A stretch of 64,000 bases of DNA from Candidatus Poribacteria bacterium (GCA_965198235.1 OZ240248.1:4960001-5024000); one strand, 5' to 3'. Positions 35,285-59,435 are shown, counted from the stretch's first letter. The notes: generated by a model not told the origin, from the sequence alone. Numbers and translations are program-made.

Positions 35285-36094
35285 TTAGTTTGCTTTAAGC
35301 CTGCCCCAGGTAATCGCAAGTTTATCTCGTGCTTCTACGGCGGTCAGTCCTCCGAGACTGTTGTTCATAATATCATTGACTTCTTCCTCTGTCAAACCGC
35401 GTTTCCAGATGTTAAGGTCATCCATCAATCCAGTGAAAGGTCGGTTGTTGTCAATGTTATAGCCGACACGTGCCCCCTGATCCCAATCTCCTGCGATAGG
35501 CGTAGGTACGCGAGCCTTTTCTTCACCGACATTTTCACCGTTGATGTAAAGCACGGCTAATCCCTCTGCTCGGCTGAATGTGCCACCGTAATGTATCCAC
35601 TCATTCGCTTTGTTTTCGCCAGCCCGGATATCGAATAGCGTTGTACCGGGGCTTCGATTGAGCCAACGATAATTTCCGTCCCCCCGTGCTTCTGGATGTA
35701 CAAGCCACGTATTATCGGCTGCACGGGCGTTGAAAATCGCCATATCTGATACGGCTTCAACGTTGAGCCACGCGAGAATACTCATGCCTTCGGTAGGGAT
35801 GTCTTCAGCCTTAATATTGGGACCCTCTAAATCCAAGAAGCTGCCGGATGCGAAATGGGCGGCTTTCCCGAATTTCCCGTCATTTGATTGTGTGACATCT
35901 CCATTAATCTTGCCATCGTAGCCATGTCCGGATTTTTCAACGACAACATCTCCGTTGAAGTCTTCATAATCGAAATACAGTACTAAATCTGGATCTAAAA
36001 CATCAGCTGAAAAAACTTCTACCGTAGGCACACAGAGAGTGCCTATCAGAAGTAAGCACATCAGATAAGGGGTGAGTATAAAGTTCTGTCTCAT
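35285..36094 (-). CDS. Secreted LamG-like jellyroll protein with C-terminal KLAxTWG tail
   Basis: Signal peptide, LVLYFDYED, GKFGKA, LYINGE, FTGLMDDLNIWKRGLT, ends AVEARDKLAITWGRLKAN. Confidence 0.9.
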   Translation of the reverse strand: MRQNFILTPYLMCLLLIGTLCVPTVEVFSADVLDPDLVLYFDYEDFNGDVVVEKSGHGYDGKINGDVTQSNDGKFGKAAHFASGSFLDLEGPNIKAEDIPTEGMSILAWLNVEAVSDMAIFNARAADNTWLVHPEARGDGNYRWLNRSPGTTLFDIRAGENKANEWIHYGGTFSRAEGLAVLYINGENVGEEKARVPTPIAGDWDQGARVGYNIDNNRPFTGLMDDLNIWKRGLTEEEVNDIMNNSLGGLTAVEARDKLAITWGRLKAN

Positions 36095-36168
36095 TTTTCG
36101 AGATACTCCTTTAGATGAACCATTCTTCTATTTTTTTACAACATGTAGCCACTTTCACCGGTCCTGCC

Positions 36169-37005
36169 TCACTTTGATGCCTTAATTTTTCCCCAGGTAG
36201 TCGCCAGTTTGCCGTGTGCTTCCACAGCAAGAAACGCGTCAACACCATCGTTCATAATGATATTGACTTCTTCCTCTGTCAAGCCACGTTTCCAGACGTT
36301 GAGGTCGTCCATCAGTCCAGCGAAGGGGCGGTTGTTGTCAATGTTATAGCCGACGCGTGCCCCGTTGCCCCAGTCTGGTGCAATAGGCGTGCCGATTCGT
36401 GCTTTTTCTTCACCGGCATTTTTTCCATTGATGTAAAGGACGGCTAACCCGTCAGCACGGCTGAACGTGCCAGCGTAATGCTGCCATTGATTCGCCTTGT
36501 TATCTCCAGCACGAATGTCAAAGATAGTCGCGCCGCCAGGACTCCGATTAAGCCAGCGATACCTGCCACTACCGCGTGCCTCTGGATGTACAAGCCATGT
36601 ATTATCCTTTGCACGTGCATTGAAAACTGCCATATCTGCGATGGCTTCAACGTTGATCCACGCGACGATACTCATGCCTTCAGTGGGAATATCCTCAGGC
36701 TTGATATTGGGTCCATCTAAGTCGAGAAAACTTCCGGTTACGAAGTGGGCGGCTTTCCCGAACTTCCCGTCATTCGATTGTGTGACCTTTCCATTAATCG
36801 CACCGTCGTAGCCACGTCCGGATTTTTCAACGACGGTATCACCCTTAAAGTCTTCATAATCGAAGTACAGCACCAAATCCGGATCTAAAACATCAGCTGC
36901 AAAAACTTCTACTGTAGGCACACAGAGAGTGCCTATCAGAAGCAGGCACACCAGATAAGGAATTAGTTTATAAGTCAGGATTGTAAATCTCTGGTTCTGT
37001 TTCAT
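36169..37005 (-). CDS. Secreted LamG-like jellyroll protein, tandem paralog, C-terminal KLAxTWG tail
   Basis: Highly similar to 35285-36094. Ends AVEAHGKLATTWGKIKASK. Confidence 0.9.
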   Translation of the reverse strand: MKQNQRFTILTYKLIPYLVCLLLIGTLCVPTVEVFAADVLDPDLVLYFDYEDFKGDTVVEKSGRGYDGAINGKVTQSNDGKFGKAAHFVTGSFLDLDGPNIKPEDIPTEGMSIVAWINVEAIADMAVFNARAKDNTWLVHPEARGSGRYRWLNRSPGGATIFDIRAGDNKANQWQHYAGTFSRADGLAVLYINGKNAGEEKARIGTPIAPDWGNGARVGYNIDNNRPFAGLMDDLNVWKRGLTEEEVNIIMNDGVDAFLAVEAHGKLATTWGKIKASK

Positions 37006-37205
37006 TTTTTGAGGTACCCTTTAGATGAATCATCCTTCACTTTTTTACAGAACGATTCGCTTATGTTAAAGTTTACCACTTTCCATTCGGGTCTGCAACC
37101 GAAAACCAAAAAAATCTTGATTTTAACTTCACTTTGCGTTAAACTGATTTGGGAAACGAATAGAAAACTGTGTAAAAAAATAAGTTGTTATACGGGAGCG
37201 TTAGG

Positions 37206-37937
37206 TTGCAAAGTGTAGGAATTATTCCAGCACGCTATGCCTCAAGCCGTTTTGAAGGCAAGCCGTTGGTGAATCTGCTCGGGAAGCCGATGGTGCAGCA
37301 TGTTTACGAAAGTGCGTGCCGCGCAAAAACATTAGATGAAGTTATTGTCGCTACGGATGACCAACGGATTTATGATGCCGTAGTACGCTTCGGCGGAAAT
37401 GTGCAGATGACCGGTCAATGTGCGACAGGTACTGAACGAGTAGCCGTCGTTGCAGAGCGCTTGGCATGTGATATTGTTGCCAATATCCAAGGGGACGAAC
37501 CGTTGCTTGAACCTGCACAGATAGACATGATGCTGCAGCCTTTTATTGACAGACCGGAGGTGCAAGTTTGCACGTTAAAACAGCGGATTGAAACTGCTGT
37601 AGATTATCGAGATGTTAACGTCGTTAAAGTCGTTACAGATCTTCAGGGTGATGCGTTGTATTTCTCGCGTGCCTCTATGCCCGGAAAGGTCAGTGAGGCA
37701 GAGTTACATAAGTTCCCAGTGTATCGGCATGTCGGGTTATATGCTTACCGTCGAGAGCGGCTTCTCGCGTTTACGAGGTGGAGCAGTACACCTTACGAAC
37801 TCGCAGAGGGGTTAGAACAATTGCGCTTTTTAGAACACGGTGTCCCTATTCATGTCGTTGAAACGGATACGCCACTTATTGGGGTTGATGTTCCTGCTGA
37901 CTTGGAGCGGGTGAAACAGATCTTGGAGTCTTCATAA
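37206..37937 (+). CDS. kdsB: 3-deoxy-manno-octulosonate cytidylyltransferase
   Basis: IIPARYASSRFEGKPL, ATDD, TGTER, NIQGDEP, ALYFSRA, EGLEQLR. TTG start 37206 after GGGAG. Confidence 0.95.
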   Translation: MQSVGIIPARYASSRFEGKPLVNLLGKPMVQHVYESACRAKTLDEVIVATDDQRIYDAVVRFGGNVQMTGQCATGTERVAVVAERLACDIVANIQGDEPLLEPAQIDMMLQPFIDRPEVQVCTLKQRIETAVDYRDVNVVKVVTDLQGDALYFSRASMPGKVSEAELHKFPVYRHVGLYAYRRERLLAFTRWSSTPYELAEGLEQLRFLEHGVPIHVVETDTPLIGVDVPADLERVKQILESS

Positions 37938-37947
37938 GGAAATTTTC

Positions 37948-39582
37948 ATGACAAAATATATTTTCGTAACGGGCGGGGTTATCTCAGGTATCGGCAAAGG
38001 GATCACGACCGCGTCCCTTGGTAGATTGCTTATCAACCGTGGGTTTAAGGTGATTGTTGTCAAAATCGATCCATACCTCAATGTAGATGCGGGTGTGATG
38101 AACCCGTTCCAACATGGCGAGGTTTTCGTCACCCATGATGGCGCAGAAACCGATCTGGATATAGGGAACTATGAACGGTTTCTCGGCATCGACCTAAATA
38201 AATATTCTAACTTTACTACGGGTTCTGTCTATAGTGAAGTGATTGCAAAAGAGCGGCGAGGGGACTACCTCGGTCAAACCGTGCAACTAATTCCACATAT
38301 TACTGACGAAATCAAACGCCGTATCTATCAGATAGGGAAAGATAACGAAGCCGAAATCGTCATTACGGAGATAGGCGGAACGATTGGTGACTTTGAAATG
38401 CCGCCTTTCGTTGAAGCCATCCGTCAGATGGCTGTTGAGGTTGAGCGCGAGAATACGATGTTCCTCCATGTCTCTCTCATTTATACCTTACCCAATGGCG
38501 AAAGCAAGAGCAAACCAACGCAACATAGCATCCGAAAACTCCAAGAGTTGGGTGTCCAGCCGGATCTATTGTTATGTCGCACCAGCGAGTCGCTGGATGA
38601 GGCATTTCGACAGAAAATCGCGCTCCTCTGTGGTATTAGTGAAAACTATATTTTTGAAGGATTGGACACAAAATGTGTAGATGAAATCCCCCTCAATTTT
38701 GAACGACAAGGCATGGGGCATCTTGTTCTAAAGAGACTCGGACTTGAAGCACGTCCACCGATGGATGCTGAATGGGTCGCAATGGTTGAAAAACTCAAAA
38801 ATCCGAATCGGAAAGCCAGGGTCGCTATTGTTGGAAAATACACAACCGGCAGTGATGCGTATATTAGTGTACAGGAAGCACTCAAGCATGGCGGGATTGC
38901 TAATGAAGCCTCTGTTGAAATTGAGTGGATAGAAGCTGAAGCGCTGACAGAACATCCAAACCTTGATAGTGTTTTTCAGAACGCCGACGGGATACTGGTT
39001 CCAGGCGGGTTCGGCTATCGCGGGATTGAAGGGATGCTGGTTGCCGCACGATACGCCCGTGAAAATAAGATTCCGTATTTGGGATTATGCCTTGGAATGC
39101 AGTGTCTGGTGATTGAGTTTGCTCGACACGTTGCGAAACTAAAAAAAGCAAACAGCACGGAAGTAGATAAAAAAACGCCTTACCCTGTTATAGATTTGAT
39201 GCTTAAACAGCACGCGATAGCTGACCTTGGAGCGACGATGCGCCTCGGAATTTATCCGTGTGTTCTCAAAGAAAACACCAAAAGTTATGCCGCCTATCAA
39301 CAACCAATTATTGTAGAGCGGCACCGTCATCGCTATGAATTGAATAACCAACACCGCTCACAATTAGAATCAGCGGGTCTCTGTTTTAGTGGTCTGTCAC
39401 CGGATGAGAGTCTTGTCGAAATTGCTGAGGTGACCGAACATCCCTGGATGGTAGGTTCACAATTTCATCCCGAATTTCAATCGAAACCACTTGCCCCGCA
39501 TCCGCTTTTCCGAGATTTTATCGCGGCGGTGCTCTCCTGTCAATACAAAGTTAATCACCCAGAAGAGGAAGAGGAAGAATGA
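37948..39582 (+). CDS. pyrG: CTP synthase
   Basis: FVTGGVISGIGKG, DPYLNVDAG, KSKPTQHS, GLCLGMQ, ERHRHRYE, QFHPEF. Confidence 0.98.
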   Translation: MTKYIFVTGGVISGIGKGITTASLGRLLINRGFKVIVVKIDPYLNVDAGVMNPFQHGEVFVTHDGAETDLDIGNYERFLGIDLNKYSNFTTGSVYSEVIAKERRGDYLGQTVQLIPHITDEIKRRIYQIGKDNEAEIVITEIGGTIGDFEMPPFVEAIRQMAVEVERENTMFLHVSLIYTLPNGESKSKPTQHSIRKLQELGVQPDLLLCRTSESLDEAFRQKIALLCGISENYIFEGLDTKCVDEIPLNFERQGMGHLVLKRLGLEARPPMDAEWVAMVEKLKNPNRKARVAIVGKYTTGSDAYISVQEALKHGGIANEASVEIEWIEAEALTEHPNLDSVFQNADGILVPGGFGYRGIEGMLVAARYARENKIPYLGLCLGMQCLVIEFARHVAKLKKANSTEVDKKTPYPVIDLMLKQHAIADLGATMRLGIYPCVLKENTKSYAAYQQPIIVERHRHRYELNNQHRSQLESAGLCFSGLSPDESLVEIAEVTEHPWMVGSQFHPEFQSKPLAPHPLFRDFIAAVLSCQYKVNHPEEEEEE

Positions 39583-40838
39583 ACAACACTGCTACGGTGC
39601 ACTCCCGTGCTTGGTACGGAGACGAGGAACTGACGCTGAATTTTCCGCCCGGTTGGAAAGTAGAGGTATTGGGTCCGAAAGATGCTCCTGCGCTTTCTGA
39701 TGCCCAAATTGAACGAGCATTTGCTGAACCCATCGGCACACCCCGAATTTCGGAACTGGCGAAAGGCAAGAACAGTGCCGCTATTGTCGTGGATGACTTG
39801 AGCCGTCCGACGCCTGCTGCGACAGTTATTCCATTTCTCCTGCGTGAGTTAGTTTCGGCAGGTGTCCCGAAATCCGAGATCCGATTTGTCGTCGGTGGCG
39901 GGTCACATCGTCCTCTCACTGATGAAGAGGTTGCGAAGAAGATAGGACCAGATGTTGCTGCTGAGTATGAAGCGACAAACCACAATTTTATGGGTGGCGA
40001 TTTACGTGCCTTAGGGAACCTTGATAACGGTATGCCTATCTATCTCGACCGCGTCGTTGCAGATGCGGATTTCAAGGTTTGTTTGGGTGGTATCTATCCA
40101 CACGGTTCTGTCGGCTTCGGCGGTGGTGCGAAATTGGTCGTGCCGGGTATTGCGGGTTTCGCGACGATGTTCTATTTTCATACCTTTTCACCGGGACGTG
40201 GGCACGCTGTAATTGAAAGACGGGGCAGTGAACCCGATCATCGCGATTTCTCCGAGGCGGTCGCTGCTGTTCTCGGTCTCGATGTTATCGCCAACGTTGC
40301 GCTCAATAGCCGTCGTGAAATTTGCGGGTTGTTTGTCGGTGATTTTGTGCAGGCGCACCGTAAGGGGGCACACTTCGCTTTGGACACTTACGGCACAGAG
40401 ATACCGGAGGCGAGCCGAAAAGAGACGGATCTCGTTGTGCTTAACTGCTATCCGCTTGATAGCGATCCGATTCAAACGGGCAAGGCTATGTGGGCACTAT
40501 CGCACTTTGAGAAGGCGTACAGGATGGCACTCAACCCCGCAAGTGATGGTATCTGCTACCATGGGTTGTTCGATCAGGTTGATTACGTCCGCTTCGTTCA
40601 GGAGAAGGCGGAAAGGACAGAATCTGAACTTCCTGCACCACAACTCGGAACTCAAGATCAACTGCACGTTTGGTCGGAACACTTTTTGGTAGACGATTTT
40701 TACAAGAAGCATCCCGGTGCGCTCCTCTTCCGAGATCTGGAGAAGTTGATTGCTTTGTTTGCAGAAAACCTCCCGTCACAAGCGAAGGTCGCTGTCCTAC
40801 CATCTGCGGGGATTCAGGTGTTGGCACCGGAGAAATAA
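39579..40838 (+). CDS. LarA-family (lactate racemase-like) protein
   Basis: VVDDLSRPTP, GSHRPL, PHGSVGFGGGAKLVVPGIAG, YPLD. ATGA overlap with pyrG. Confidence 0.85.
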   Translation: MNNTATVHSRAWYGDEELTLNFPPGWKVEVLGPKDAPALSDAQIERAFAEPIGTPRISELAKGKNSAAIVVDDLSRPTPAATVIPFLLRELVSAGVPKSEIRFVVGGGSHRPLTDEEVAKKIGPDVAAEYEATNHNFMGGDLRALGNLDNGMPIYLDRVVADADFKVCLGGIYPHGSVGFGGGAKLVVPGIAGFATMFYFHTFSPGRGHAVIERRGSEPDHRDFSEAVAAVLGLDVIANVALNSRREICGLFVGDFVQAHRKGAHFALDTYGTEIPEASRKETDLVVLNCYPLDSDPIQTGKAMWALSHFEKAYRMALNPASDGICYHGLFDQVDYVRFVQEKAERTESELPAPQLGTQDQLHVWSEHFLVDDFYKKHPGALLFRDLEKLIALFAENLPSQAKVAVLPSAGIQVLAPEK

Positions 40839-40844
40839 AGGCAG

Positions 40845-41381
40845 ATGCTTAAAGAAAGCACGACTATAAAATCCTTCCTCCAGAACATTAACGCCTTCCT
40901 GGGTAAGATTGAAACCGGTTTGCTGTGCCTTATTATCGCAATGATGTTAGGGCTCGCGATCCTCAAAGTCGTCATGCGCTACGTATTCAGTGCAAGTCTA
41001 TTGTGGAGCGACGTAATGCTTCAGCACCTAACCCTTTGGCTCTGCCTCTTGGGTGCTGCACTGGCTACTTGCGAAAAAAGGCACATCAGCATTGATGTGC
41101 TCAGCCGAGTCCTACCCGAAAATATCACGCGCTGGAGCAATCTTGTTGTTAATTGCCTCGCTTTAATTGTCGTTGGGATTTTAGCCTATTACGGCTTTAT
41201 CTTTCTACAGGATGAACAATTGAGCGAGGCTGTATTAATTGGAAGTGTTCCTCTATGGTGGGCGAAGTCTATTATCCCATACGGTTTTGTCCTCATCGGC
41301 ATCCATATGCTCCTTCAGATTGGCATCCATTTAACAGGGGGTAAACATGCTCCACGTACTGTCGAAGGAGAATCGGACTGA
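40845..41381 (+). CDS. TRAP transporter small permease (DctQ)
   Basis: Four TMs, VVMRY, GAALAT..RHISID. Confidence 0.88.
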   Translation: MLKESTTIKSFLQNINAFLGKIETGLLCLIIAMMLGLAILKVVMRYVFSASLLWSDVMLQHLTLWLCLLGAALATCEKRHISIDVLSRVLPENITRWSNLVVNCLALIVVGILAYYGFIFLQDEQLSEAVLIGSVPLWWAKSIIPYGFVLIGIHMLLQIGIHLTGGKHAPRTVEGESD

Positions 41382-42667
41382 TGGGCTTAATAATTGGCAT
41401 TGGATTGGTGGGATTCGCGCTTTTCGGCGGTGCACTTTTCGCCTTACTGGGTGGGGCTTCGATTATCGGATACGCTACAGCGGGCGAACCGATTTCAACA
41501 ATTCTGATCGATTTCAATCGGCTCACACGGAACTCGACTATTTTGATTATCCCGCTCTTCACTTTTGCGGGGTATATAGTCGCTGAAGGGAAGGCACCCC
41601 AACGGTTGGTTGCGTTTGCGCGCGCGAGTGTTGGTTGGCTACCGGGTGGTATTGCTGTCGTCGTGCTCTTTACGTGTGCGTTCTTTACAACTTTCACAGG
41701 TGCATCCGGCATAACGATTATCGCCCTCGGTGGATTGCTCTATCCAATTCTGCGGCAGACGTATAATGAAAGATTTTCACTCGGCTTGGTGACGGCTTCT
41801 GGGAGTATAGGGTTGTTGTTTCCTCCGAGTGTCCCACTTATCCTTTACGCGATTATCGCCCAAGTCCGTATCGACAGGATGTTCCTTGCAGGTATTTTCC
41901 CCGGGATTCTTATTCTCGTTATACTGAGCTTTTATAGTTGCGGGTGGAGTCTCTTCAAACGGACTGAGACAACTCCGTTTGATTGGAGAGTTTTCCTGCG
42001 AACGCTCTGGGAAGCGAAGTGGGAACTGCTGCTGCCGTTTATTGTGTTGGGTGGTATCGTATCCGGTAAAGTTACACTGGACGAAGCGGCTGCGCTAACA
42101 GCTATCTATGCCTGTGTCGTGGAGGTTGGCATCCACCGTTCCATTTCGTTGAGAGTGTTGCCGCGTATCGTCAAAGAGAGTACGTTGCTTGTAGGCGCAA
42201 TCCTCATCATTCTCGGTATCGCTTTAGGGTTGACAAACTACCTAATCACGCTTGACGTGCCTACGGCTGTCCTTGACTGGATTCAGTCAACAACGGAAAG
42301 CCGCGTCATCACACTTATTGGGCTCAATATTTTCCTACTGATTGTTGGGTGTCTGATGGACATCTTTTCGGCGGTGATTATTGTTGTGCCGTTGCTGCTT
42401 CCTATCGCTGAACAATTTGGTATTGACAAGGCGCATCTCGGTATTATTGTTTTAACGAACCTTGAAATCGGTTATTTGACACCGCCAGTCGGAATGAACC
42501 TGTTTATTTCAAGCATGAAGTTTGATCGGTCTGTCCTGTTGCTTTACCGCTCTGTGCTATTGTTCATTGCATTGCTGCTCGTAGCGCTCATATTGGTGAC
42601 GTATGTCCCAGAGTTGAGTCTGTGGCTACCGGAAGCTCTTGGGAAAACATCTCAACCGCTTTTGTAA
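41381..42667 (+). CDS. TRAP transporter large permease (DctM)
   Basis: IPLFTFAG, GSIGLLFPPS, GCLMD, GYLTPPVGMNLF, PELSLWLP. Confidence 0.93.
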   Translation: MGLIIGIGLVGFALFGGALFALLGGASIIGYATAGEPISTILIDFNRLTRNSTILIIPLFTFAGYIVAEGKAPQRLVAFARASVGWLPGGIAVVVLFTCAFFTTFTGASGITIIALGGLLYPILRQTYNERFSLGLVTASGSIGLLFPPSVPLILYAIIAQVRIDRMFLAGIFPGILILVILSFYSCGWSLFKRTETTPFDWRVFLRTLWEAKWELLLPFIVLGGIVSGKVTLDEAAALTAIYACVVEVGIHRSISLRVLPRIVKESTLLVGAILIILGIALGLTNYLITLDVPTAVLDWIQSTTESRVITLIGLNIFLLIVGCLMDIFSAVIIVVPLLLPIAEQFGIDKAHLGIIVLTNLEIGYLTPPVGMNLFISSMKFDRSVLLLYRSVLLFIALLLVALILVTYVPELSLWLPEALGKTSQPLL

Positions 42668-42679
42668 ATTCAGCAAAAT

Positions 42680-42714
42680 AAATAAGTCTGGTGATAGAAT
42701 CACCAGACTTATTT
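42680..42714. terminator. Perfect 16-bp hairpin between convergent genes, likely bidirectional terminator
   Basis: aaataagtctggtgat-aga-atcaccagacttattt with A/T-rich flanks. Confidence 0.65.
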
Positions 42715-42784
42715 TTAATATTTGTGCTGTAATAATACAGTTTGAATACCGGTATTCAGTAACAGGGCTGATTCAGCTGCAGAG

Positions 42785-43579
42785 TTATTTTCTTTCTTTC
42801 AGTTCACCCCATGTAACAGCCAGTTTTCCCGCCGCTTCGACATCCAAACTAATATCCATCATCTCGTTAATCTCATTTTCGTCAAGGGCACGTTGCCAAA
42901 ATGAAATCTCGTCAATAATCCCCTCAGCACCGTTTGTCATCGCGACATATTTGATCGTTTCCCAACCGAATCTCGGTTTTTCATGCAGGGCAGGGAAGCC
43001 ACCGGTAATTTTACGACTGTTCGCTGCTTCTTTACCGTCGATGTAGAGGAAGGGAACTTCACCGGCGAAATCCCATGTCACAGCACAGTGAAACCACACA
43101 TCTTTTTTGATGATGCCTGTCGGGTCGAATTCAATATCTTGCCAATCTGCGTCATCGGCGGCTTCAAAATAGAATCCGAAGTCTTCGGGGTTGATGTCAG
43201 CGTGATTCGCTCCCTTGGAGACGAAGAAGTAGATAGGTCCGAAACTGGCATCAAAGATGCGATAATCGTCGCCATCCTTGCCATCCCAATCCGGTTTGAA
43301 CCAGAAGAGCAGACTGCCTGCCTCGGTGATAACGTTGGGGACTTCCATGAAAGCCTCTGCGCCTCTCAGGGAAATTCCGGCGGCATATTTGCCTTCGCCA
43401 GCCACCCATTTTGCCGCGCCGCTAAACGCTCCATCGTTTCCGTTACCTGTACCATCAATTGCTTTGTTTCCACTACCTTCGCCGATCCACAAGAGCAGAT
43501 CCTTATCGCCGGGGATTCCTGCGAATGAAGAAGAGATGGCAAATACACTGATAAACAGAATCAAGTAAATCTGTCTCAT
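42785..43579 (-). CDS. Secreted LamG-like jellyroll protein with C-terminal KLAxTWG tail
   Basis: Signal peptide ending SFA, WFHCAVTWD, LYIDG, GIIDEISFWQRALD, ends DVEAAGKLAVTWGELKERK. Confidence 0.9.
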   Translation of the reverse strand: MRQIYLILFISVFAISSSFAGIPGDKDLLLWIGEGSGNKAIDGTGNGNDGAFSGAAKWVAGEGKYAAGISLRGAEAFMEVPNVITEAGSLLFWFKPDWDGKDGDDYRIFDASFGPIYFFVSKGANHADINPEDFGFYFEAADDADWQDIEFDPTGIIKKDVWFHCAVTWDFAGEVPFLYIDGKEAANSRKITGGFPALHEKPRFGWETIKYVAMTNGAEGIIDEISFWQRALDENEINEMMDISLDVEAAGKLAVTWGELKERK

Positions 43580-43643
43580 GACCTCTTATTAACCTCCCAA
43601 TGTTCAAATTTTGAGAGGATTGTAGCAGAAATCATAAATTAAG

Positions 43644-43901
43644 TCAATTGCTTTTCTTTCGCTCTGTGGTTTCTTGTTCAGGAGATGTCTCTGGCGCAGC
43701 TTTCTGCGTCGCTCTCACAGCTCCTGCCCCGTGTAAGAGTCGTTTTGGAACTGGTTGTGGTTGCGATGATACTGGACTTAATTTTGGACGGGGTCGAAAC
43801 TGTGGAAGCGGTCCCGGTGGCTCGTAAGTCGTATGTATTGGGCGTTGGCCTATTGAATGCCCAATGACGTGTTCTCTGTTTTCAACGGGTTGCTCTTTCA
43901 T
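43644..43901 (-). CDS. Small Pro-rich hypothetical protein
   Basis: ATGA start/stop overlap with the upstream 2TM gene. Confidence 0.55.
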   Translation of the reverse strand: MKEQPVENREHVIGHSIGQRPIHTTYEPPGPLPQFRPRPKLSPVSSQPQPVPKRLLHGAGAVRATQKAAPETSPEQETTERKKSN

Positions 43902-44428
43902 ACAATCATATCTCCCATCTGTTGGTTCAACTTTTCTTGAACCTTCTGGCGGTGTCTACGCGTCAAAAGAAAATCGTCCTTTAGCATTTGCGAACCCACC
44001 AATAACCACTCTCGGTACTGTTCAAATGTGGTTTTGAATTGCTCTAATGGGAAGTCGGGATTGGCTTCCATTTCGTAGATAAACCGCTCCAGATTGAGGC
44101 GTAAGCTCTTAAAATACTGCGCATTGTGACTCAAATCTGCGACACGGTCCGAAACCTTAAGAATAACATGCAGAAGTGCAAAAAAGGCAGCACATCCTGC
44201 GATGAGTAGCCACGTTACTTTTCCTGCTGGTGTGCCCCATGCCATCCATCCGACCATGACTGAGGCGATAGTGGCGACAGTCACGGTGCTTTTGATGACT
44301 CCGTCTACGGGTCTCCACATTTGAAGTGCTGAAGTCATGAGGCTTTCGGTGTAAGCAACGCGGTAGAAGGTTTCAAGTGATGTCTGCCAGAGAAGGTCTT
44401 TCTGATAGTCTGCAGCTGTCCTGTCCAT
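43898..44428 (-). CDS. Two-TM helical protein resembling SLATT effector domains
   Basis: Helix, two closely spaced TMs, C-terminal helical region (YFKSLRLNLERF). Start ATG 44428 after AAGGAG. Confidence 0.6.
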   Translation of the reverse strand: MDRTAADYQKDLLWQTSLETFYRVAYTESLMTSALQMWRPVDGVIKSTVTVATIASVMVGWMAWGTPAGKVTWLLIAGCAAFFALLHVILKVSDRVADLSHNAQYFKSLRLNLERFIYEMEANPDFPLEQFKTTFEQYREWLLVGSQMLKDDFLLTRRHRQKVQEKLNQQMGDMIV

Positions 44429-44678
44429 TATATGGATCTCCTTTGGGGAATGCATTCCGTTACAGTAGTAGGTACCTTGTGTGCAATCACATAGGTTTAA
44501 TATGTTATTAGGTAACGAAAGAATTAGGAATTCGGTAACAGACTTTTTAATTTTCCTTGCGGTTAAATGAAGTGGGTCAGTACATTAACACCCTTCGCTT
44601 TAGAGTCGCCCTCCATTTCATTACGGGCTTGCGATCTTGGGCCAAGAAGACAGAGGAATAGTTTCGATCAATTCACGG

Positions 44679-45821: not shown

Positions 45822-45827
45822 TATCTT

Positions 45828-48377: not shown

Positions 48378-48403
48378 TTTCTACACCTCTCAAATCAAAA
48401 TAC

Positions 48404-48660: not shown

Positions 48661-48661
48661 T

Positions 48662-50075: not shown

Positions 50076-50232
50076 AATCCTCTTCTTTGCGAATAATCCT
50101 GTTGTTCTGCAAGTATAGCGTGCAGGCACTCTTTTGTCAAATTTTAGGGGTTTTGGTGCGGATCCGTTCAAAAAGGAGTGCGCATGCGACCTCCCAAGGA
50201 GTTCGGAGGCCGCACCAATTGGATTAAGGAGT

Positions 50233-52032: not shown

Positions 52033-52380
52033 TTAATTTTCAGCCTCCTCTGAATGCGGGGTAAAGGTTCTCACTAATTTCCTTTGTTTCAACAGCGTCA
52101 CGTGTTGAAAACTCTATCAATGCTGTGTCGGTGTCATGAAAATACGTCACTTTCACTGGGGTTCTCCCTTAAAATTCCTGTCGAAAAAGGCGTTATGAAG
52201 GATGCGGCATAAAAACCATCTCACTTTCAAAAAACGGGCATTTAGATTTTAAAGATAGGATAGAGTATCTACACAAATTGCGTGTATCTGCTGGCTGACG
52301 AGGTTTTCAACTTTGCCTTTTTCTACACAGTTCATGGAAGTGTCTGTAGCTACCACAGGCAACTACAGACATTCACTGCA

Positions 52381-53034
52381 TTAAATCGAAAAACTACCGA
52401 CAAAGACGTTGTTCTCTGTGCCACTTTGCTGCCATGTCACCGGGAGGTGAGTGTCCTTATAGCGATAAACTTCGGATTTACCGACAATGGCGTTCTGAAT
52501 CGTTGTCAGCGGTTTGTACCAGATCTGATGGGGTTGTGTACATCCGGCACACGGATAGCGGTTGGCAGAAAGTTTGAGAACTTCGCCAACGGTTACATCA
52601 TATTTGGTGCCTTTTTTCGTGAATTCAATGGAAGCGGTCTGGGTCGCGACGACTCCGCCCAAAACATCAGCGTATTTCGTCGTGAGCATATCGCTGAGCG
52701 CGGCACGCTGTTCCGGCGTAGTGCTTGGATCCATGTACAGTACACTCTTACGGGTTTTGGTCTCGATTGCCAAGTTGTTTTTCGCACTAACGACGGCGAC
52801 GACGGTTAGGTTCTCCAGCGAAACGTCATTCCAACTTCCATTCTGAACGTTCCAGACCAGGGTTGCCTCTCTGCCACCTTCCACATATTCGGCACCAAAG
52901 TGGCATGCCCCGACATAAACACTCGCAGAACGGGCTTCAATGTATTCGCCTTGCACAGTAGGTGATTCGGTCGCAAAAGCGAAACCTGCTATGAAGGTCA
53001 GCGCGAGTATTGTCAAAACAAAGATATTTCTCAT
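52381..53034 (-). CDS. Secreted DUF1326-like protein
   Basis: Signal peptide ending AFA, GEYIEARSASVYVGACH, PEQRAAL. Start ATG 53034 after GGGAG. Confidence 0.7.
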   Translation of the reverse strand: MRNIFVLTILALTFIAGFAFATESPTVQGEYIEARSASVYVGACHFGAEYVEGGREATLVWNVQNGSWNDVSLENLTVVAVVSAKNNLAIETKTRKSVLYMDPSTTPEQRAALSDMLTTKYADVLGGVVATQTASIEFTKKGTKYDVTVGEVLKLSANRYPCAGCTQPHQIWYKPLTTIQNAIVGKSEVYRYKDTHLPVTWQQSGTENNVFVGSFSI

Positions 53035-53317
53035 CTTGATTTCTCCCTTTTTTTGGGGATTTACCTTACTAAACACAATAGTAACATTATAGCCATTTAA
53101 CCTTAACCCTTATTATATCTTAAATAAATTAAAAAAGCAATCTTTTTTATAATTGTTTATTTACCCCATTTTTTATAGGAGGTTTGTGTTGAAAAGGTAT
53201 TGATAGAAAATGTATAGGAAAGTCAGGACTAAATTTAAACGGATCATTACTATATTTTTCCTTACATCTGGGACGGTTAAAAGACCACACCTCCCTGGAA
53301 TTAGGACTGAGGTAGCG

Positions 53318-54172
53318 TTATTTCCCGGCTTCCGCTAATAGGCGATGGAGCGTTCCGCCTAAAATCTCTGCTTTGTCTGCCTCTGGAATAAACGTACAGT
53401 GTGTTCGGAACGCCTCAAGCGCGTGTTGATAGGTCATAAAGTTCCGAACAACTGGGTAGTCGGACCCCCAACAGAGACGACCGGGACCGAAGTGTTCATA
53501 GAGTGCGCGCACAATCCAGTGCGTATCTGATTGTGGATAATCCCACGAGACCTGTGAGACATAAGCGAAACCCGACATCTTGATATGAATGTTCGGCACG
53601 TTTCCCGATGCAAGCACCTGCTTGAGTTGTGGATACGGATACTCTTCACCGGCTCGCGCACCACCCATGTGATGGCACAGAAATGGCACAGTCGGGAACT
53701 GCGCTGCGAGTTTTCCGAGTGCCTCGTGCTGATGGCTTCCCATAGCGATGCTGGCGATTAGCCCTAATTCGGCGGTCGTTTGGAAGAAACGTTGCCCTTC
53801 CTCTGAAAAGAACCAACTCCCATCGTCATCACCTCTGAGATAGTGGGTATAGCCTTTGAGGGCGTACGCTTCCGCTGCAGTTTTCAATCGATCAGCTGCA
53901 CCATCCGTATGATACGTCTCTGTCCATGAGCAGTCCACATCAGCGAATTGGATGAGCCGCTCAGGGTAGCGTTTGACGCACGCTGCGACGTAATCGTTGT
54001 TTTCGGGGTTCCGATCGATGCGTGCGCAGATAAGCACAGCCCTGTCGATGTCGTGCAGATCCATTTCGTGGAGCAGTTGTTCAACCTTGCCACGGCTCTC
54101 ATCATCAGGAACGGGCGGTTGATAGGGCCACCGGGGCCATGCGTGGGTATGTGAATCAATTATTATCGTCAT
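53318..54172 (-). CDS. Amidohydrolase family 2 protein
   Basis: IDSHTH, CHHMG, KMSG, WGSDYP. Confidence 0.9.
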   Translation of the reverse strand: MTIIIDSHTHAWPRWPYQPPVPDDESRGKVEQLLHEMDLHDIDRAVLICARIDRNPENNDYVAACVKRYPERLIQFADVDCSWTETYHTDGAADRLKTAAEAYALKGYTHYLRGDDDGSWFFSEEGQRFFQTTAELGLIASIAMGSHQHEALGKLAAQFPTVPFLCHHMGGARAGEEYPYPQLKQVLASGNVPNIHIKMSGFAYVSQVSWDYPQSDTHWIVRALYEHFGPGRLCWGSDYPVVRNFMTYQHALEAFRTHCTFIPEADKAEILGGTLHRLLAEAGK

Positions 54173-54362
54173 TTCTCATCCTGTGCAGCACACTACACAA
54201 ATGTCGCCCCGCTGGGGCTAAAGAGCATATATTCACAGCACATTCTATAGACGCCTTGAAAGGTATTTCCACCTGAGAACGCGCTTCCTGTTGTGAAAAA
54301 TACGTCCATTTTTCTAAAATTGACACCTATGGTGCGTTTGTCCCTCAACTCCGTTGGAATTT

Positions 54363-54782
54363 CTAAGGGCTTATAATGTATTTTTGCTTAAGTGCTTCTA
54401 TTTCTCGTGACAATTCTTCTATTTTTCTGTCTTGTGCCCGTTCGTTTTGTCCCCGCCACGCGATGATAATCTGCGGGATGCCTACAGTTACAACAATGAG
54501 AATTATGAGCGCGGATACGAATCCTATGACCAAGGTAAGCCGTTTGTCAAAACTCTCAAATTTGGTGTCAACATACCCTTTCATATTCAACTCGGATTTC
54601 GCTATTTCTTCTCTGAGCCGCGTCTCAGATGCAGCAATTTCTTTTCTGAGCTGCGTCTCAGATGCAGAAACCTCCTCTTTAACAATCAAACGAATTTTGT
54701 CAAGATCTTGAGAAGTTAAGTCCCCAACGGCGGATGGCACGATCACCAAAAATGCAGTATAGAAAAATATAGTAAATTTCAT
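54363..54782 (-). CDS. Small coiled-coil membrane protein with 11-aa repeats
   Basis: Signal-like N-terminus, SASETQLRKEI/AASETRLREEI, C-terminal TM. Start ATG 54782 after AAGGAG. Confidence 0.7.
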   Translation of the reverse strand: MKFTIFFYTAFLVIVPSAVGDLTSQDLDKIRLIVKEEVSASETQLRKEIAASETRLREEIAKSELNMKGYVDTKFESFDKRLTLVIGFVSALIILIVVTVGIPQIIIAWRGQNERAQDRKIEELSREIEALKQKYIISP

Positions 54783-54883
54783 CACAAACTCCTTTTTCAC
54801 ATATAGTACATCACATTTTTGGGACTTTGTCAACTTGAAATTTGATTTGGGGTCGGGGCTATTCGTTTTCAGCGGTCAGTAAG

Positions 54884-54908
54884 ATCGCGAGCACAGCTCG
54901 CTCCTACA
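54884..54908 (-). repeat. GTAG-type REP palindrome
   Basis: Identical to 17036-17060. Confidence 0.85.
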
Positions 54909-54917
54909 ACAAACGGT

Positions 54918-56447
54918 TCACTTTAATCCCAGCATCAGGGCACCCAACTCTTGTTTGTTTGTTTCTGCAGGCTTCACAACACCGACAATTTTGCCATCGT
55001 ACATCACTGCGATCCTGTCGCTAAGGTGAAGGAGTTCGTCTAATTCAGAGGAGACGAGTAAAACGGCTTTGGCGCGGTTACGGGCATGAATAAGCCGTGT
55101 GTGGACGAATTCCGCTGCATGGATGTCTAAGCCTCGTGTTGGGTGCGCAGCAATGATAACTTCAGGATGTGCCTCTAACTCGCGCGCGACGACGACCTTC
55201 TGCTGATTCCCACCGGAAAGGGTCCGTATCGGATCTGTGATATCTCCAACACGAATTTGGTATTTGTCGAGGGCATTCAGTGCATACCGTTGAATTGATT
55301 TTCGCTGAAGCAGTTCATAGCGGCAGAATCGACTGTGTTTATGATGTCCGATGATGAAGTTATCGTCAATTCGGTCGTTCAAACTAATACCGTGTCGGTG
55401 TCTATCGGCGGGGACGTGCGCGATCGGTTCCCCGTTTAGCGTGAGCCTACCGCTATCAATCTGCCGTAACCCTGTCAGGACCTGAACGAGTTCCATTTGT
55501 CCGTTCCCTTCCACGCCTGCTATGCCGACAATTTCACCGGGGAACACCTCAAGGTTAACTTCGTTGAGATGTCGTTTGTTGGACGCTCTATTTGTCAGGA
55601 CCTTTTTCCATTTATGCCTTCTTATAACGTCAGAACCTCCAGTGAGTGTGACGTTTTCCAAACGGAGCAGAGGTGTTGCGCCTGTCGTCTGTTCTCGCGT
55701 CACAGAGGCAGGGATAACAGGTTCGCCGAGAATTATTTCCGCCAACGTTGCCGGATCGGTATCGTCGATCGGACAGGAGGCGACGGCTTGCCCGCGTCGC
55801 ATTACCGTGACGGTGTCGGCGATTGCCATCACTTCATCGAGTTTGTGTGTGATGATAATGAGGCTTTTCCCTTCACTTTTGAGGTTGCGCATACAATTAA
55901 AAAGTCCTTCGACCTCTTGTGGTGCGAGCACGGCTGTCGGTTCATCCATGATGAGGATGTCTGCACCGTGGTAGAGGACTTTCAGGATTTCGGTGTGTTG
56001 TTGTGCACCAATCGGCAGAGATTCAACAGAGGTGTTCAGTGGTACATCGAAACCGAGCTGCGCTGCAAGCACTGCAATCTGTTCTCCTGCCTGTTGATAA
56101 TCAAGGAGCGCACCAAATTTGCGAGGCTCTTTGGCAAGGACGATGTTTTGAAGAGCCGTGAAGACGGGAATGAGCGTGAAGTGCTGCTGGACCATTCCCA
56201 AACCGAGGTGCATCGCGCGCCGTGGCGAGGAGATAATTACGGCACGTCCATCGACGAAAATCTCGCCTGCATCGGGTTGATACAGACCGTAGAGGATTTT
56301 CATCAGGGTAGACTTGCCTGCTCCGTTTTCGCCAACAATCGCGTGGATCTCACCCCGATGGAGCGTGAAATCTACAGCGTCGTTTGCCTGCACTTGTCCA
56401 AAATGCTTGCTGATGCCACGCATCTTGATGATTGGTGGATGTGTCAT
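54918..56447 (-). CDS. Nucleoside/simple-sugar ABC transporter ATP-binding protein (two NBDs)
   Basis: GENGAGKSTLM, MDEPTAVL, ITHKL, GVEGNGQ, LSGGNQQK, PTRGLD. Confidence 0.93.
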   Translation of the reverse strand: MTHPPIIKMRGISKHFGQVQANDAVDFTLHRGEIHAIVGENGAGKSTLMKILYGLYQPDAGEIFVDGRAVIISSPRRAMHLGLGMVQQHFTLIPVFTALQNIVLAKEPRKFGALLDYQQAGEQIAVLAAQLGFDVPLNTSVESLPIGAQQHTEILKVLYHGADILIMDEPTAVLAPQEVEGLFNCMRNLKSEGKSLIIITHKLDEVMAIADTVTVMRRGQAVASCPIDDTDPATLAEIILGEPVIPASVTREQTTGATPLLRLENVTLTGGSDVIRRHKWKKVLTNRASNKRHLNEVNLEVFPGEIVGIAGVEGNGQMELVQVLTGLRQIDSGRLTLNGEPIAHVPADRHRHGISLNDRIDDNFIIGHHKHSRFCRYELLQRKSIQRYALNALDKYQIRVGDITDPIRTLSGGNQQKVVVARELEAHPEVIIAAHPTRGLDIHAAEFVHTRLIHARNRAKAVLLVSSELDELLHLSDRIAVMYDGKIVGVVKPAETNKQELGALMLGLK

Positions 56448-56449
56448 CT

Positions 56450-57427
56450 CTACTGCCGTTCGTATGGGACAATAATGTCGCCCGAGATAATTTTCGCTTT
56501 AAATGCTTCGACCTGTTCCAAAATCTCGTCCGGGAGAAGGGCACGGTTGACATCATCAACGATGTACTCAACACCCCCCTCTTTAAGCCCGTAATTTTTC
56601 AAACCGCCAGAGAAATTCCCTTCTTGGACGCTCTTTATCGTCTCATAAACCGATATTTCCACGCCTTTGATAACACTCGTGAGGACTAAACCGGGGGCGA
56701 GGTTGTTACCGTTAGAATCGACCCAGATAATAGATTTTTGTGTCGCTTTTGCTGCCTCAAGAACACCCAGACCACTCGCACCTGCAGCCGCAAGGATAAT
56801 GTCAATTCCACGGTTGTATTGCGTGAGAGCGAGTTCTTTCGCTTTCGCTGGATCGTTGAATGCTTGCGGTGTAACACCTACGTAATCCGCTACCAGTTCA
56901 AGATCGGGATTTGTTGCCTTAATACCGGCGCGATAGCCGATTTCAAAAGCCTCAACCAGCGGCACCTTCATCCCTCCGATGAAACCTATCTGCTTTGTCT
57001 CTGTTTTCAACGCTGAAATGACCCCTGCGAGAAATGTGCCTTCGTGTGCTCGGTAGGTCAGCGAGGCGACGTTGGGTTGTTCTATGACTGCGTCGATAAG
57101 CGCGAACTTAACATCCGGGAAATCGCTTGAGACACGATTCATCGGTTCTTGAAAAAGGAAACCGACCCCGATGATAAGATCGTATTTCAGTTTCGCGAGC
57201 CTGCGGAGCGTCAACTCGGTATCTGTGCTGAGGCTTGGGGTAACCTCTGTGAGTTTAAATCCCCATTCGTCTTCTGCTTTTTTCGCGCCTGCGTAGGCGG
57301 CATCACAGAATGAGAGATCGCCGCGCCCGGTGACATCGTAGATGAGACCGACTTTCAGTGCCGCGGATGCCGTTTCTATCATAGCAAAGCATACGATAAA
57401 AAGTGTGATTAAAATCCTTATACGCAA
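56450..57427 (-). CDS. BMP family ABC transporter substrate-binding protein
   Basis: GRGDLSF, IIGVGF, IGFIGG, FNDPAKAKE, AAGASGLG, IWVDS. Confidence 0.92.
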   Translation of the reverse strand: MRIRILITLFIVCFAMIETASAALKVGLIYDVTGRGDLSFCDAAYAGAKKAEDEWGFKLTEVTPSLSTDTELTLRRLAKLKYDLIIGVGFLFQEPMNRVSSDFPDVKFALIDAVIEQPNVASLTYRAHEGTFLAGVISALKTETKQIGFIGGMKVPLVEAFEIGYRAGIKATNPDLELVADYVGVTPQAFNDPAKAKELALTQYNRGIDIILAAAGASGLGVLEAAKATQKSIIWVDSNGNNLAPGLVLTSVIKGVEISVYETIKSVQEGNFSGGLKNYGLKEGGVEYIVDDVNRALLPDEILEQVEAFKAKIISGDIIVPYERQ

Positions 57428-57583
57428 AATGTTTTCCTTTCTAATTCCGTAGTTCTATGATGGAGAGAGCCTAAGACTATCTCAATACTATTTAACATAC
57501 ACGATAATTGGGTCAAATGCAAGTGTTATTGTGGTTCTAATGCCCTTGTGAAGCTATTTGGTTTTTCATACTTCAAGTTAGTC

Positions 57584-57789
57584 GGTTCGTAGTAGGGAAA
57601 CCATTCATTGCCCGTTATACACAGTTTTAGAACGTGCGATGAATCGCACGACTACAAACACATTCCCTCGTAGTCTGAAAACTATTTATTATCTGTTAAT
57701 TCCGAGCAATCCGATACGCGGAAGAGTCGGGGTTAGAAACCCCTCCCACAAGGTATTAAAATGTCCAAGTAATTCTATATTTTACTATA
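57584..57789. repeat. Composite repeat region: REP doublet, single REP and MITE-like end
   Basis: GTAG doublet 57584-57659, REP 57725-57749, end motif 57760-57789 matching 10513-10542. Confidence 0.65.
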
Positions 57790-57931
57790 AATACCCTAAC
57801 ATTCTTGAAGTTAATGTTGACTTTTTTGATTTTTAACGTTATTCTATTTGTAGGATTTCTGCTATCACTACGATGACAGAAATGTATCGACAAGTTCTAA
57901 ATTGTATTGACGGAAAACAGGAGGAGAAGAT

Positions 57932-58615
57932 ATGAGAATGGCTATTAGATTCTCAAAGTTAATCGTCTTGAATCTCATCGTGCTTTTGGGGGTCGCGTTT
58001 TCGCTACCAACTTTCGCAGGCACCCAATTGTGGGACTTTGAGGAAAAGCACGATGACTGGAAAGTCGCGAACGGAAATTGGGAAATCAAGGGCGGTATCT
58101 ACCAACTCGAAAGAGGCGGTAGAGCCGAACATTCTCTCGTCGGCGAAGAGGACTGGGACGACTACACCGTCGAAGCCAAGATCCGGATGGACGAAGGCAA
58201 TTGGGCAGGCTTAATCTTTCGAGCACAAAGTGAGCATGAGTATTACATCTACTACCTGAACGTTCCGAACAACAAGTCTGAGCTTTGGCGGCATAACAAA
58301 GGGGCGTGGGATTCGCGTGTCGCGATTACCAGTAATATTCCCGCCACTAAAAAAGTGAAGATAGAGAACGAAGAGTGGTATGATGTTAAAGTAATCGTTG
58401 AAGACGGTATCTTCCAACTGCATATCAACGGTGAACTTCAGAGTGAACAGAAAGACGATGCCTACAAAACCGGCAAGATCGGTGTGTGGGGATGGGAAAC
58501 CGCCGCGAGTTTTGATGATGTCACTATTACCGGCGATAATGTCATAGATACCCTTGCCGTTGATGCGAATCACAAGCTCGCAACAACATGGGGTCGCCTC
58601 AAACGGGTCTATTAA
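57932..58615 (+). CDS. Secreted DUF1080 (3-keto-disaccharide hydrolase-like) protein with C-terminal KLAxTWG tail
   Basis: Signal peptide ending TFA, WDDYTVEAK, AGLIFRAQ, GKIGVW, FDDVTI, ends AVDANHKLATTWGRLKRVY. Confidence 0.85.
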   Translation: MRMAIRFSKLIVLNLIVLLGVAFSLPTFAGTQLWDFEEKHDDWKVANGNWEIKGGIYQLERGGRAEHSLVGEEDWDDYTVEAKIRMDEGNWAGLIFRAQSEHEYYIYYLNVPNNKSELWRHNKGAWDSRVAITSNIPATKKVKIENEEWYDVKVIVEDGIFQLHINGELQSEQKDDAYKTGKIGVWGWETAASFDDVTITGDNVIDTLAVDANHKLATTWGRLKRVY

Positions 58616-58766
58616 TTTTCGGTAAAGTTCAGCCTCAGAAGTTTTCTACACGAAAACCTTGTTGAAGACTTTTGAGGCAACCTTAATTTGGGCTTGTAGC
58701 CACGCTTAAGCATTTTCAAAGCGGTCTTCGGACAGGTTATCAAATATGGTTAGAAGGAGTGGTTTG

Positions 58767-59435
58767 ATGAAATATCTTTTTTCAATCGTTGTAAGTTGGT
58801 GTTTTCTCGTACTCGTAGCCTCCTTCGCTTTTGCGGGAGAGCAAGTATGGTCATTTGAAGCGGATGCAGACGACTGGGAACCTGCTAACGGTTCTTGGAG
58901 TATTGAAGATGGCATTTATAAACTCGCCAAAGGCGGTAGAGCCGAGCACTCTCTCGTCGGTGACGCTGAGTGGGAGGACTACACTGTTGAGGCGAAGGTT
59001 CGGCTTGATGAGGGAAATTGGGCAGGTGTTGTGTTTCGCGCCCAAAGCGAGATGGAATACTATGTTTACTATCTCAATGTCCCGAATAACAAAACTGAGC
59101 TATGGCGACATAAGACAGGGGCATGGGACGCTCGTGACAAGATCGGCGAACTCGCCGGAGCTAACATAACTGTCGCGAACGGCGAATGGTTTGACATGCG
59201 AATCGTCTTAGAAGGCACTTCGATGAAACTCTGGATTAACGGTGAAGACCAGGGTGAACTTAAGGATGAAACCGGTGCTGGATACCCCGCCGGGCAAGCC
59301 GGTGTCTGGGCGTGGGAAACTGCCGCGAGTTTTGATGATGTCACGGTCTCTGGAGACGCTATCGTCGGTCTTACTCCGGTGGAGCCGCAGGATAAATTGG
59401 CGACGACATGGGGACGTATTAAACAACGTTTTTAG
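58767..59435 (+). CDS. Secreted DUF1080-like protein, tandem paralog, C-terminal KLAxTWG tail
   Basis: Paralog of 57932-58615. Start ATG 58767 after AAGGAG. Ends PVEPQDKLATTWGRIKQRF. Confidence 0.85.
   Translation: MKYLFSIVVSWCFLVLVASFAFAGEQVWSFEADADDWEPANGSWSIEDGIYKLAKGGRAEHSLVGDAEWEDYTVEAKVRLDEGNWAGVVFRAQSEMEYYVYYLNVPNNKTELWRHKTGAWDARDKIGELAGANITVANGEWFDMRIVLEGTSMKLWINGEDQGELKDETGAGYPAGQAGVWAWETAASFDDVTVSGDAIVGLTPVEPQDKLATTWGRIKQRF

Follow-up and report, generated by a model that had tools for sequence, protein, structure and literature searches.

A short conserved C-terminal tag on exported proteins of Candidatus Poribacteria, a candidate signal for sorting or docking in the cell envelope

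Introduction

LPXTG, PEP-CTERM and the C-terminal domain (CTD) that serves type IX secretion (by the T9SS) are C-terminal signals, and each of them led to the finding of a dedicated envelope machine. We here describe a C-terminal peptide that recalls them. It was noticed on five proteins encoded in a stretch of 64,000 nucleotides (GCA_965198235.1 OZ240248.1:4960001-5024000; in its full length called the window below) from Candidatus Poribacteria bacterium, a sponge symbiont. The peptide is a short and highly constrained tag, which is shared by well over a hundred proteins of the same genome and is present in every genome of the phylum. It probably marks its carriers for a placement step in the cell envelope. 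Poribacteria dominate many marine sponge microbiomes.

The described C-terminal signals are of different kinds. PEP-CTERM, GlyGly-CTERM and LPXTG tags include a transmembrane helix. Dockerins are calcium-binding C-terminal modules of about 70 amino acids (aa), which dock diverse cellulosomal enzymes to the cohesins of a scaffold. PTS1, which is read by PEX5, and the cargo-loading peptides of encapsulins are short C-terminal targeting peptides with one receptor and cytoplasmic cargo. Periplasmic proteins, in turn, are anchored by an amphipathic helix in the case of PBP5 and by a C-terminal lysine in the case of Braun's lipoprotein (Lpp). The latter residue is joined to peptidoglycan by L,D-transpeptidases and provides the model for a covalent anchor.

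The tagged genes of the window

The first three tagged proteins are of the LamG type (Pfam Laminin_G_3) and are encoded on the minus strand. They comprise 269 aa (35285-36094), 278 aa (36169-37005) and, in a divergent member, 264 aa (42785-43579). The last two, on the plus strand, belong to the Pfam family 3keto-disac_hyd, formerly DUF1080, and resemble 3-keto-disaccharide hydrolases; one has 227 aa (57932-58615), the other 229 aa (58746-59435). All five start with a signal peptide and end with the tag, as seen in the sequences of the open reading frames (ORFs) and by profile match: LTAVEARDKLAITWGRLKAN in the final 20 codons of the 269-aa LamG gene (35288-35347), LAVEAHGKLATTWGKIKASK in the 278-aa LamG gene (36172-36231), LDVEAAGKLAVTWGELKERK in the 264-aa LamG gene (42788-42847), LAVDANHKLATTWGRLKRVY in the 227-aa DUF1080 gene (58553-58612) and TPVEPQDKLATTWGRIKQRF in the second DUF1080-like gene (59373-59432). 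Genes, tails and the division of the passengers into two families are thus as described in the initial annotation. Its start of the fifth gene, 58767, needs a comment: the frame itself extends to 58746, yet 58767 is the second methionine and is favoured by orthologues of 222 aa, the length that the protein has from there.

Number and position of tags in the genome

The host assembly comprises 5.17 Mb in two contigs and is 96.3% complete; positions in it are given with the prefix C1. A loose regular expression yielded 113 six-frame matches genome-wide, 103 of them no more than 6 residues away from a stop codon. Within the last 10 residues before the stop the motif occurred in 106 ORFs, of which 95 had at least 150 aa. 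A profile hidden Markov model built from 48 tails and searched against all 98,636 stop-to-stop ORFs matched 149 of them at an independent E-value (i-E) of ≤0.01, and in 148 the match lay ≤10 residues from the end of the ORF. Even the sub-threshold matches were likewise terminal in 40 of 44 cases. Chance falls far short of explaining the motif. The picture does not change outside this genome. Against 1.84 billion representative proteins the profile gave 554 matches at E ≤0.001; 146 of the best 150 lay ≤10 residues from the C-terminus, the four exceptions being one false positive in a Calx-beta repeat and three proteins with 11-27 extra residues. The tail is indeed confined to the C-terminus, as had been supposed from five examples.

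Laminin_G_3 matches numbered 97 in the genome, and 80 of them fall in ORFs with the tail. Among the remaining 17, about 12 have diverged tails, as judged by eye, and about four have none. With these 12 or so diverged tails added, the real total of carriers is close to 160, out of about 4,470 genes in a crude gene call. Eleven significant tag ORFs are outside the gene calls, ten of them of ≤121 aa, and six called tag genes have fewer than 150 aa. There are also ORFs of 31-125 aa that are hardly more than a tag, as well as split LamG fragments (C1:1834170-1834307, 3268063-3268158, 865403-865501, 3010604-3011551); both probably represent copies that have decayed or suffered a frameshift. An in-frame TGA is present in one Laminin_G_3 match (C1:1297620-1298057).

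Distribution

The distribution was followed with a strict DNA pattern, V-x4-K-L-x-T-T-W-G-x-[LIVMF]-K, and with the same pattern read backwards as control. The former matched 41 of 41 relatives and 173 of the 176 genomes of the phylum Candidatus Poribacteria, the latter none of the 176. Genomes of the same genus mostly contained 25-60 strict-pattern matches each. The three genomes that escaped the strict pattern had 36-58 profile matches each, and the tag is therefore present in 176 of 176 genomes.

Beyond the phylum, bacteria and archaea were scanned with one genome per species; 80 of the 129 matched stretches were listed, which is not a census. Candidatus Poribacteria account for 74 of the 80 among the matches listed. 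Also among the matches listed are two metagenome-assembled genomes (MAGs) that bear the label 'uncultured bacterium' and contain 85 and 147 tags. A match in a Cyclobacteriaceae MAG is due to chance: it lies in a tiny ORF, and the profile finds nothing in that genome. A 1.9-Mb MAG labelled Pseudomonadota has four tags in all, and two genuine tag ORFs are on its contig JAPPIL010000222.1, which is probably a mis-binned fragment of Poribacteria. In ten clusters of profile matches the named members belong to Candidatus Poribacteria or stem from the assembly of a sponge, Geodia barretti; their source names are hypothetical protein, DUF4960 domain-containing protein and N-acetylneuraminic acid mutarotase.

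No described family covers the tag. The NCBIfam models gave a single chance match with 48 isolated tails at E ≤10 and no sorting-domain model with the five window proteins. Nor did a Pfam or NCBIfam model fit the tail in the window proteins, the carriers or the isolated tails, which agrees with the initial view that the motif is uncharacterised. A profile search of the PDB produced chance-level matches only (E 0.2-1), e.g., an internal EPGGRLPTTWGSL in a beta-glucosidase. A literature search, which was not made in depth, revealed no paper containing the motif strings and none that ties Poribacteria to LamG or DUF1080 proteins or to such a tag.

Carrier proteins

The carriers are secretory proteins almost without exception. 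With a crude test, a signal-peptide-like start was seen in 125 of the 131 carriers that reach 150 aa, compared with 760 of the 2247 remaining genes between 150 and 400 aa, and the six carriers that failed look N-terminally truncated. The near restriction to proteins with signal peptides, first surmised from the window, thus extends to the genome. A lipobox-like motif is present in only 2 of the 131. The carriers are small: their median length is 263 aa, most have 230-300 aa, and few exceed 400 aa.

What precedes the tag varies considerably. The passengers of 95 carriers, those of the regular-expression set, fell into 27 BLAST clusters, the largest being LamG (50) and the next DUF1080 (11). In 43 carriers outside the LamG cluster, Pfam identified PD40 propellers (3), Kelch propellers (2), CBM9_1 (2), NPCBM (1), Laminin_G_3 (3) and DUF1080 (4 above cut-off), together with weak matches to F5/8-type-C and DUF4960. 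One carrier of 744 aa combines Big_12 with a Lamin-tail domain (LTD). For 21 of the 43 no Pfam family was found at E ≤0.01. The tag is portable, as the initial annotation had proposed, and occurs on many unrelated folds. The caveat attached to that proposal, i.e., that all passengers are concanavalin A (ConA)-like, no longer holds, as beta-propellers, CBM9, NPCBM and Ig-like proteins are tagged, too. Since so many passengers without a ConA-like fold carry the tail, it is not a part of that fold.

Sequence and constraint

In 95 tails the core reads L-[AP]-V-[ED]-[PA]-x-[GD]-K-L-[AT]-T-T-W-G-x-[LI]-K. It is preceded by about 10 weakly conserved residues, in which G, E, D and S abound, and followed by 1-7 variable ones (mode 3), many of them R, Q, S, A or K. 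Of 147 aligned carriers, 146 keep the tryptophan. The last lysine is a lysine in 137 of 137 aligned tails of the genome and in 149 of 149 best database matches, and never an arginine; the first lysine is replaced by arginine in 6 of 148. Both the near-invariance of the tryptophan and the strict exclusion of arginine from the last lysine position are new observations. A variant of the core has Trp-Ala, rarely Trp-Ser, instead of Trp-Gly (26 Ala vs 111 Gly in the profile alignment) and is found on the same kinds of proteins, e.g., at C1:979141-979980 (minus strand), C1:3548275-3550023 and C1:4008351-4009193.

The codons of the tag tell a simple story. Across its copies six leucine and four threonine codons are used, and identity at the third position is about 0.25, while first and second positions are fixed. 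The synonymous positions vary freely, and selection therefore acts on the peptide and not on a DNA repeat. The tail had been considered to be better conserved than the domain next to it. This is true across families and orthologues, where the tail holds 6 of 10 invariant columns in one alignment (A1) and 6 of 7 in another (A3); it fails for a recent pair of LamG duplicates, which are 80% identical overall and share 11 of 16 residues in the tail core.

Predicted structure

The tails contain no hydrophobic stretch able to cross a membrane. From the first lysine to the C-terminus their net charge is +2.7 on average. The hydrophobic moment amounts to 0.31 for a helix and 0.33 for a strand, compared with 0.29 +/- 0.14 and 0.29 +/- 0.16, respectively, in shuffled tails. 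In the AlphaFold2 model of the second DUF1080-like protein (alignment of 31 sequences) the domain, residues 31-203, has a predicted local distance difference test score (pLDDT) above 90; the linker (204-213) and the tag (214-228), which is drawn as a free helix, stay below 50. The 278-aa LamG protein (21 sequences) shows a confident domain with its usual C-terminal helix to about residue 260, and the tag (261-278) merely prolongs this helix with a pLDDT of 59 falling to 52.

In both models, then, the tail is unpacked and detached from the domain, and, as had been anticipated, it is neither a transmembrane segment nor a folded CTD. The idea of an amphipathic helix found no support: the helical moment is at the level of shuffled tails and the pLDDT of the modelled helix is below 60.

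Comparison with known C-terminal signals

The tag has features in common with PEP-CTERM, GlyGly-CTERM and LPXTG. Behind a motif near the C-terminus (V-E-P of the tag recalls P-E-P) come a spacer and then basic residues, and there are dozens of carriers per genome in a lineage-specific manner. Unlike PEP-CTERM, however, the tag has a polar spacer, K-L-A-T-T-W-G-x-L-K, and in 95 tails no hydrophobic span after V-[ED]-P. The LPXTG motif and its transmembrane stretch are missing from the tails, and the lack of a transmembrane segment also separates them from GlyGly-CTERM.

Like a dockerin, the tag would be one conserved C-terminal module by which many carbohydrate-related proteins dock to a common scaffold, but it is too short, and Pfam scans of 48 carriers revealed no dockerin family. 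With PTS1 and encapsulin peptides it shares shortness, lack of structure, high conservation, a variable linker and cargo of many folds. It differs from them in that its carriers have signal peptides and its extreme C-terminus is variable.

The type A CTD of the T9SS (TIGR04183 or Por_Secre_tail) comes close in several respects. It, too, is C-terminal, sits on Sec signal-peptide proteins of a diderm, is combined with many unrelated passengers and ends in [LI]-K. It is, however, a folded Ig-like domain with a model of 72 positions, whereas the tag has 17-25 residues and is unfolded in the models, and TIGR04183 did not match any of the five window proteins in an NCBIfam scan at E ≤1. In summary of these comparisons, the tag is similar to the described C-terminal sorting signals in where it sits, in its portability and in its lineage-specific expansion, and it lacks the defining features of each family tested.

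Search for a reader

Exosortase (EpsH, PF09721) was not detected in this 96.3%-complete genome, although the control was positive in Methanocaldococcus. Sortase (PF04203) was equally absent from the genome, with positive controls in three Gram-positive genomes.

T9SS-like genes are the only machinery for C-terminal signals seen in the genome, and those given below with coordinates lie outside the window. Twenty-three proteins have a type A CTD above the TIGR04183 cut-off, in open frames of 547-2241 aa. Most of them end in ...TRKM[LV]I[LMRK]K with lysine as the last residue, and none has the tag. A SprA-like ORF of 2,239 aa is located at C1:981354-988073; within the phylum, 173 of 176 genomes have such a gene. 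Seven ORFs are PorV-like, the best of them (C1:3831533-3832657) by Pfam PF19572 and with the NCBI Poribacteria name 'PorV/PorQ family protein'; the best 120 homologues listed for the latter are 84-95% identical to it. Three proteins are PorU-like (C1:1017118-1022058, 2769254-2774305, 3175983-3180257), and a PorV-like ORF directly follows the first of their genes. All these SprA-, PorV- and PorU-like matches stay below the curated cut-offs. GldM had no match, but this search was silent in the control genomes as well, and what the GldK model matched are generic FGE-sulfatase domains. An early single-cell study, of 2014, had seen TIGR04183 matches on poribacterial repeat proteins and reported that it detected no Por structural genes (PMC3909097). 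The present genomes do contain SprA-, PorV- and PorU-like genes.

Neighbouring genes were grouped by BLAST. Within three genes of the tags one cluster was enriched, with 57 of its 218 members near tags (p = 4e-7), and 25 of 137 tag genes have a member of the cluster next to them vs 12.4 +/- 3.3 for random genes. As a single machinery this cluster had to be abandoned: Pfam, which covered 21 of 27 adjacent partners, shows that single linkage had brought together TPR, FG-GAP/ASPIC, FGE-sulfatase, sulfatase, ECF-sigma fusion, WD40 and BNR proteins in it.

How the tag may work

The tag is exposed, constrained, always C-terminal, nearly always joined to a protein with a signal peptide, attached to many folds and universal in the phylum, and therefore looks like a signal on many ligands that is read by one partner. 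A recognition tag by which proteins are sorted or docked within the envelope after Sec export is thus the most likely explanation, one which we hold with moderate confidence. The carriers, mostly small, single-domain, beta-rich binding modules, would cross the inner membrane by means of their type-I signal peptides. The passenger domain would fold in the periplasm, while a linker of about 10 residues and the tag of 17 residues would remain exposed and unstructured. One conserved envelope partner, common to all of the about 150 carriers, would then read the tag, presumably with contacts centred on the tryptophan, the last lysine and the V-E-P segment, and the reading would bring the modules to, or keep them at, one shared place in the envelope or at the cell surface. 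The existence of a protein partner, localisation as the outcome and the final location are what we infer. Almost all carriers are small binding modules without catalytic domains, and they are encoded among genes of sulfatases and exported proteins, which would fit glycan-binding modules held at the surface.

A more specific proposal is that Poribacteria own an undescribed envelope pathway for sorting or attachment, in which a phylum-specific receptor or enzyme routes about 3% of the proteome, i.e., small glycan-binding modules, to the surface for contact with the sponge matrix. We consider it a tentative idea, somewhat more doubtful than not. If the favoured recognition tag is real, the chance that its reader belongs to the T9SS-like set of SprA-, PorV- and PorU-like proteins is about one in three.

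Several results weigh against a recognition tag with a dedicated reader. No partner was found for it. Enrichment near tag genes concerned only the mixed exported or repeat proteins and sulfatase-related proteins mentioned above. Phyletic profiling inside the phylum for co-occurring genes had to be ruled out, as there is no tag-free genome that could serve as the negative set. The T9SS-like genes are tied to the tag only by co-occurrence, both being universal in the phylum. Two tag genes do flank the SprA-like gene in this genome, but the linkage is taken as chance: in 5 of 5 other families no tag gene was seen within about 1.5 kb of the orthologue. Finally, the folded CTD of the T9SS buries about 1,850 Å2 on PorV loops plus SprA (PMC10994853), and a peptide of 17 residues cannot reproduce such a contact.

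The tag is found on about 150 proteins per genome, i.e., about 3% of some 4,500 crudely called genes, and its carriers have so far been annotated only as hypothetical or LamG proteins. By means of the tag, the probable envelope or surface proteins of this uncultivated symbiont can be searched for as a defined set, and the peptide can serve as a bait for their receptor. If that receptor is new, the tag would represent a sorting principle that works with neither a transmembrane anchor nor a folded signal domain. Even as a mere docking peptide it would show how Poribacteria organise a large set of lectin-like modules.

Alternative explanations

The tag could act as an envelope anchor that does not require a protein reader: a cationic Lys-Trp-Lys peptide might bind lipopolysaccharide (LPS), peptidoglycan or the membrane directly, or become attached covalently via its lysine. 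The positive net charge and the trailing residues rich in R, K and Q would suit such a role, the tryptophan would suit a membrane interface or glycan binding, and a last lysine that is never replaced by arginine in all 137 and 149 sequences, respectively, fits a chemical function of the epsilon-amino group. Like PBP5 and Lpp, the tag may be a C-terminal element, here with an invariant lysine, that keeps a protein exported by Sec attached to one layer of the envelope. The details, however, do not match. As helix or strand the tails are no more amphipathic than their shuffled controls, in contrast to PBP5, and the tag is far more constrained in sequence than in-plane anchors. Invariance over 17 positions across a phylum presumably exceeds what binding of lipid or LPS usually needs, and the lysine is never terminal, as it is in Lpp, but followed by 1-7 residues in all 95 tails. 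Anchoring of this kind appears unlikely to us.

It is likewise improbable that the tag is a miniature T9SS signal, by which a PorV-like shuttle and a SprA-like translocon, perhaps with PorU-like processing, would deliver small modules to the cell surface. The idea is not far-fetched, since the genome has the SprA-like gene, the seven PorV-like and three PorU-like ones and the 23 CTD proteins. Also, tag and CTD both terminate signal-peptide proteins and both end in [LI]-K, and they divide the carriers by size, the CTD being on the large proteins and the tag on the small ones of mostly 230-300 aa. Against it stand the mute TIGR04183 model, the 17-25 aa of the tag that lack a fold, the dependence of recognition on the large surface of a folded CTD (PMC10994853), the sub-threshold quality of all SprA-, PorV- and PorU-like matches, the failure to find GldM (with silent controls), the generic nature of the GldK matches and the linkage to the SprA-like gene, which is not conserved. 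Nor is the tag a general feature of T9SS, because the named strong profile matches are all from Poribacteria or the sponge assembly.

Quite unlikely is self-association of the carriers to homo- or hetero-oligomers, which would create multivalent lectin-like assemblies and imply no sorting role at all. The tag takes the form of a free helix at the C-terminus in the AlphaFold2 models, and as most passengers are single binding modules, multivalency would presumably help them. Yet the helix is of low confidence and only about 14 residues long, it shows no heptad pattern and a hydrophobic moment at the shuffled level, and the invariant Trp-Gly and lysine would be atypical of bundling helices.

It is also quite unlikely that the tag has no placement role, being either a turnover or quality-control mark for a protease of the periplasm or the relic of a family that spread it by duplicating. 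One expanding family, Laminin_G_3, does supply much of the count (80 of 148 carriers), and short tag-only ORFs and fragments do exist, but no genome of the phylum has lost the tag, and the Pfam families that carry it, which are unrelated, number seven or more. The tag also holds most of the invariant columns among orthologues and is variable precisely in the very C-terminal residues that tail-specific proteases and PDZ domains read.

Genes around the tags

In the window, the stop codon of the second DUF1080 tag gene is directly followed, from the next base on, by a TPR-repeat ORF of 628 aa (59436-61322, plus strand), an arrangement that points to co-transcription of the two. TPR genes adjoin several further tag genes, but they are very abundant genome-wide and the link may be due to chance. 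RNA contigs from four sponge metatranscriptome libraries, all of a single study, are identical to both DUF1080 genes of the window, although some bins of the examined stretch had no coverage; one contig is identical to 59231-59450 and spans the tag end of the second gene. These matches lend weak support to expression of the tag genes, as DNA carry-over is possible.

The GldK model detects about 13 FGE-sulfatase (SUMF1-like) genes in the genome, four of which adjoin tag genes (C1:1354615-1355526, 3877165-3878046, 863266-864456, 3284485-3285429). Sulfatase genes likewise neighbour tag genes, and this adjacency may reflect a common involvement in the use of sulfated glycans. Two ORFs of about 970 aa (C1:1829851-1832772 and C1:2070235-2073138) join a sigma-70 region of the extracytoplasmic function (ECF) type to BNR/sortilin-like beta-propeller repeats; each of them adjoins a tag gene, one of the Kelch and one of the LamG kind.

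Next to the LamG pair of the window there is an ORF of 404 aa on the minus strand (33631-34845), which by eye resembles TnpB of the IS200/IS605 type, with Cys-x2-Cys ... Cys-x2-Cys near its C-terminus. By BLAST, 33 similar ORFs of the genome fall into one cluster; for five of them a tag gene is no more than three genes away.

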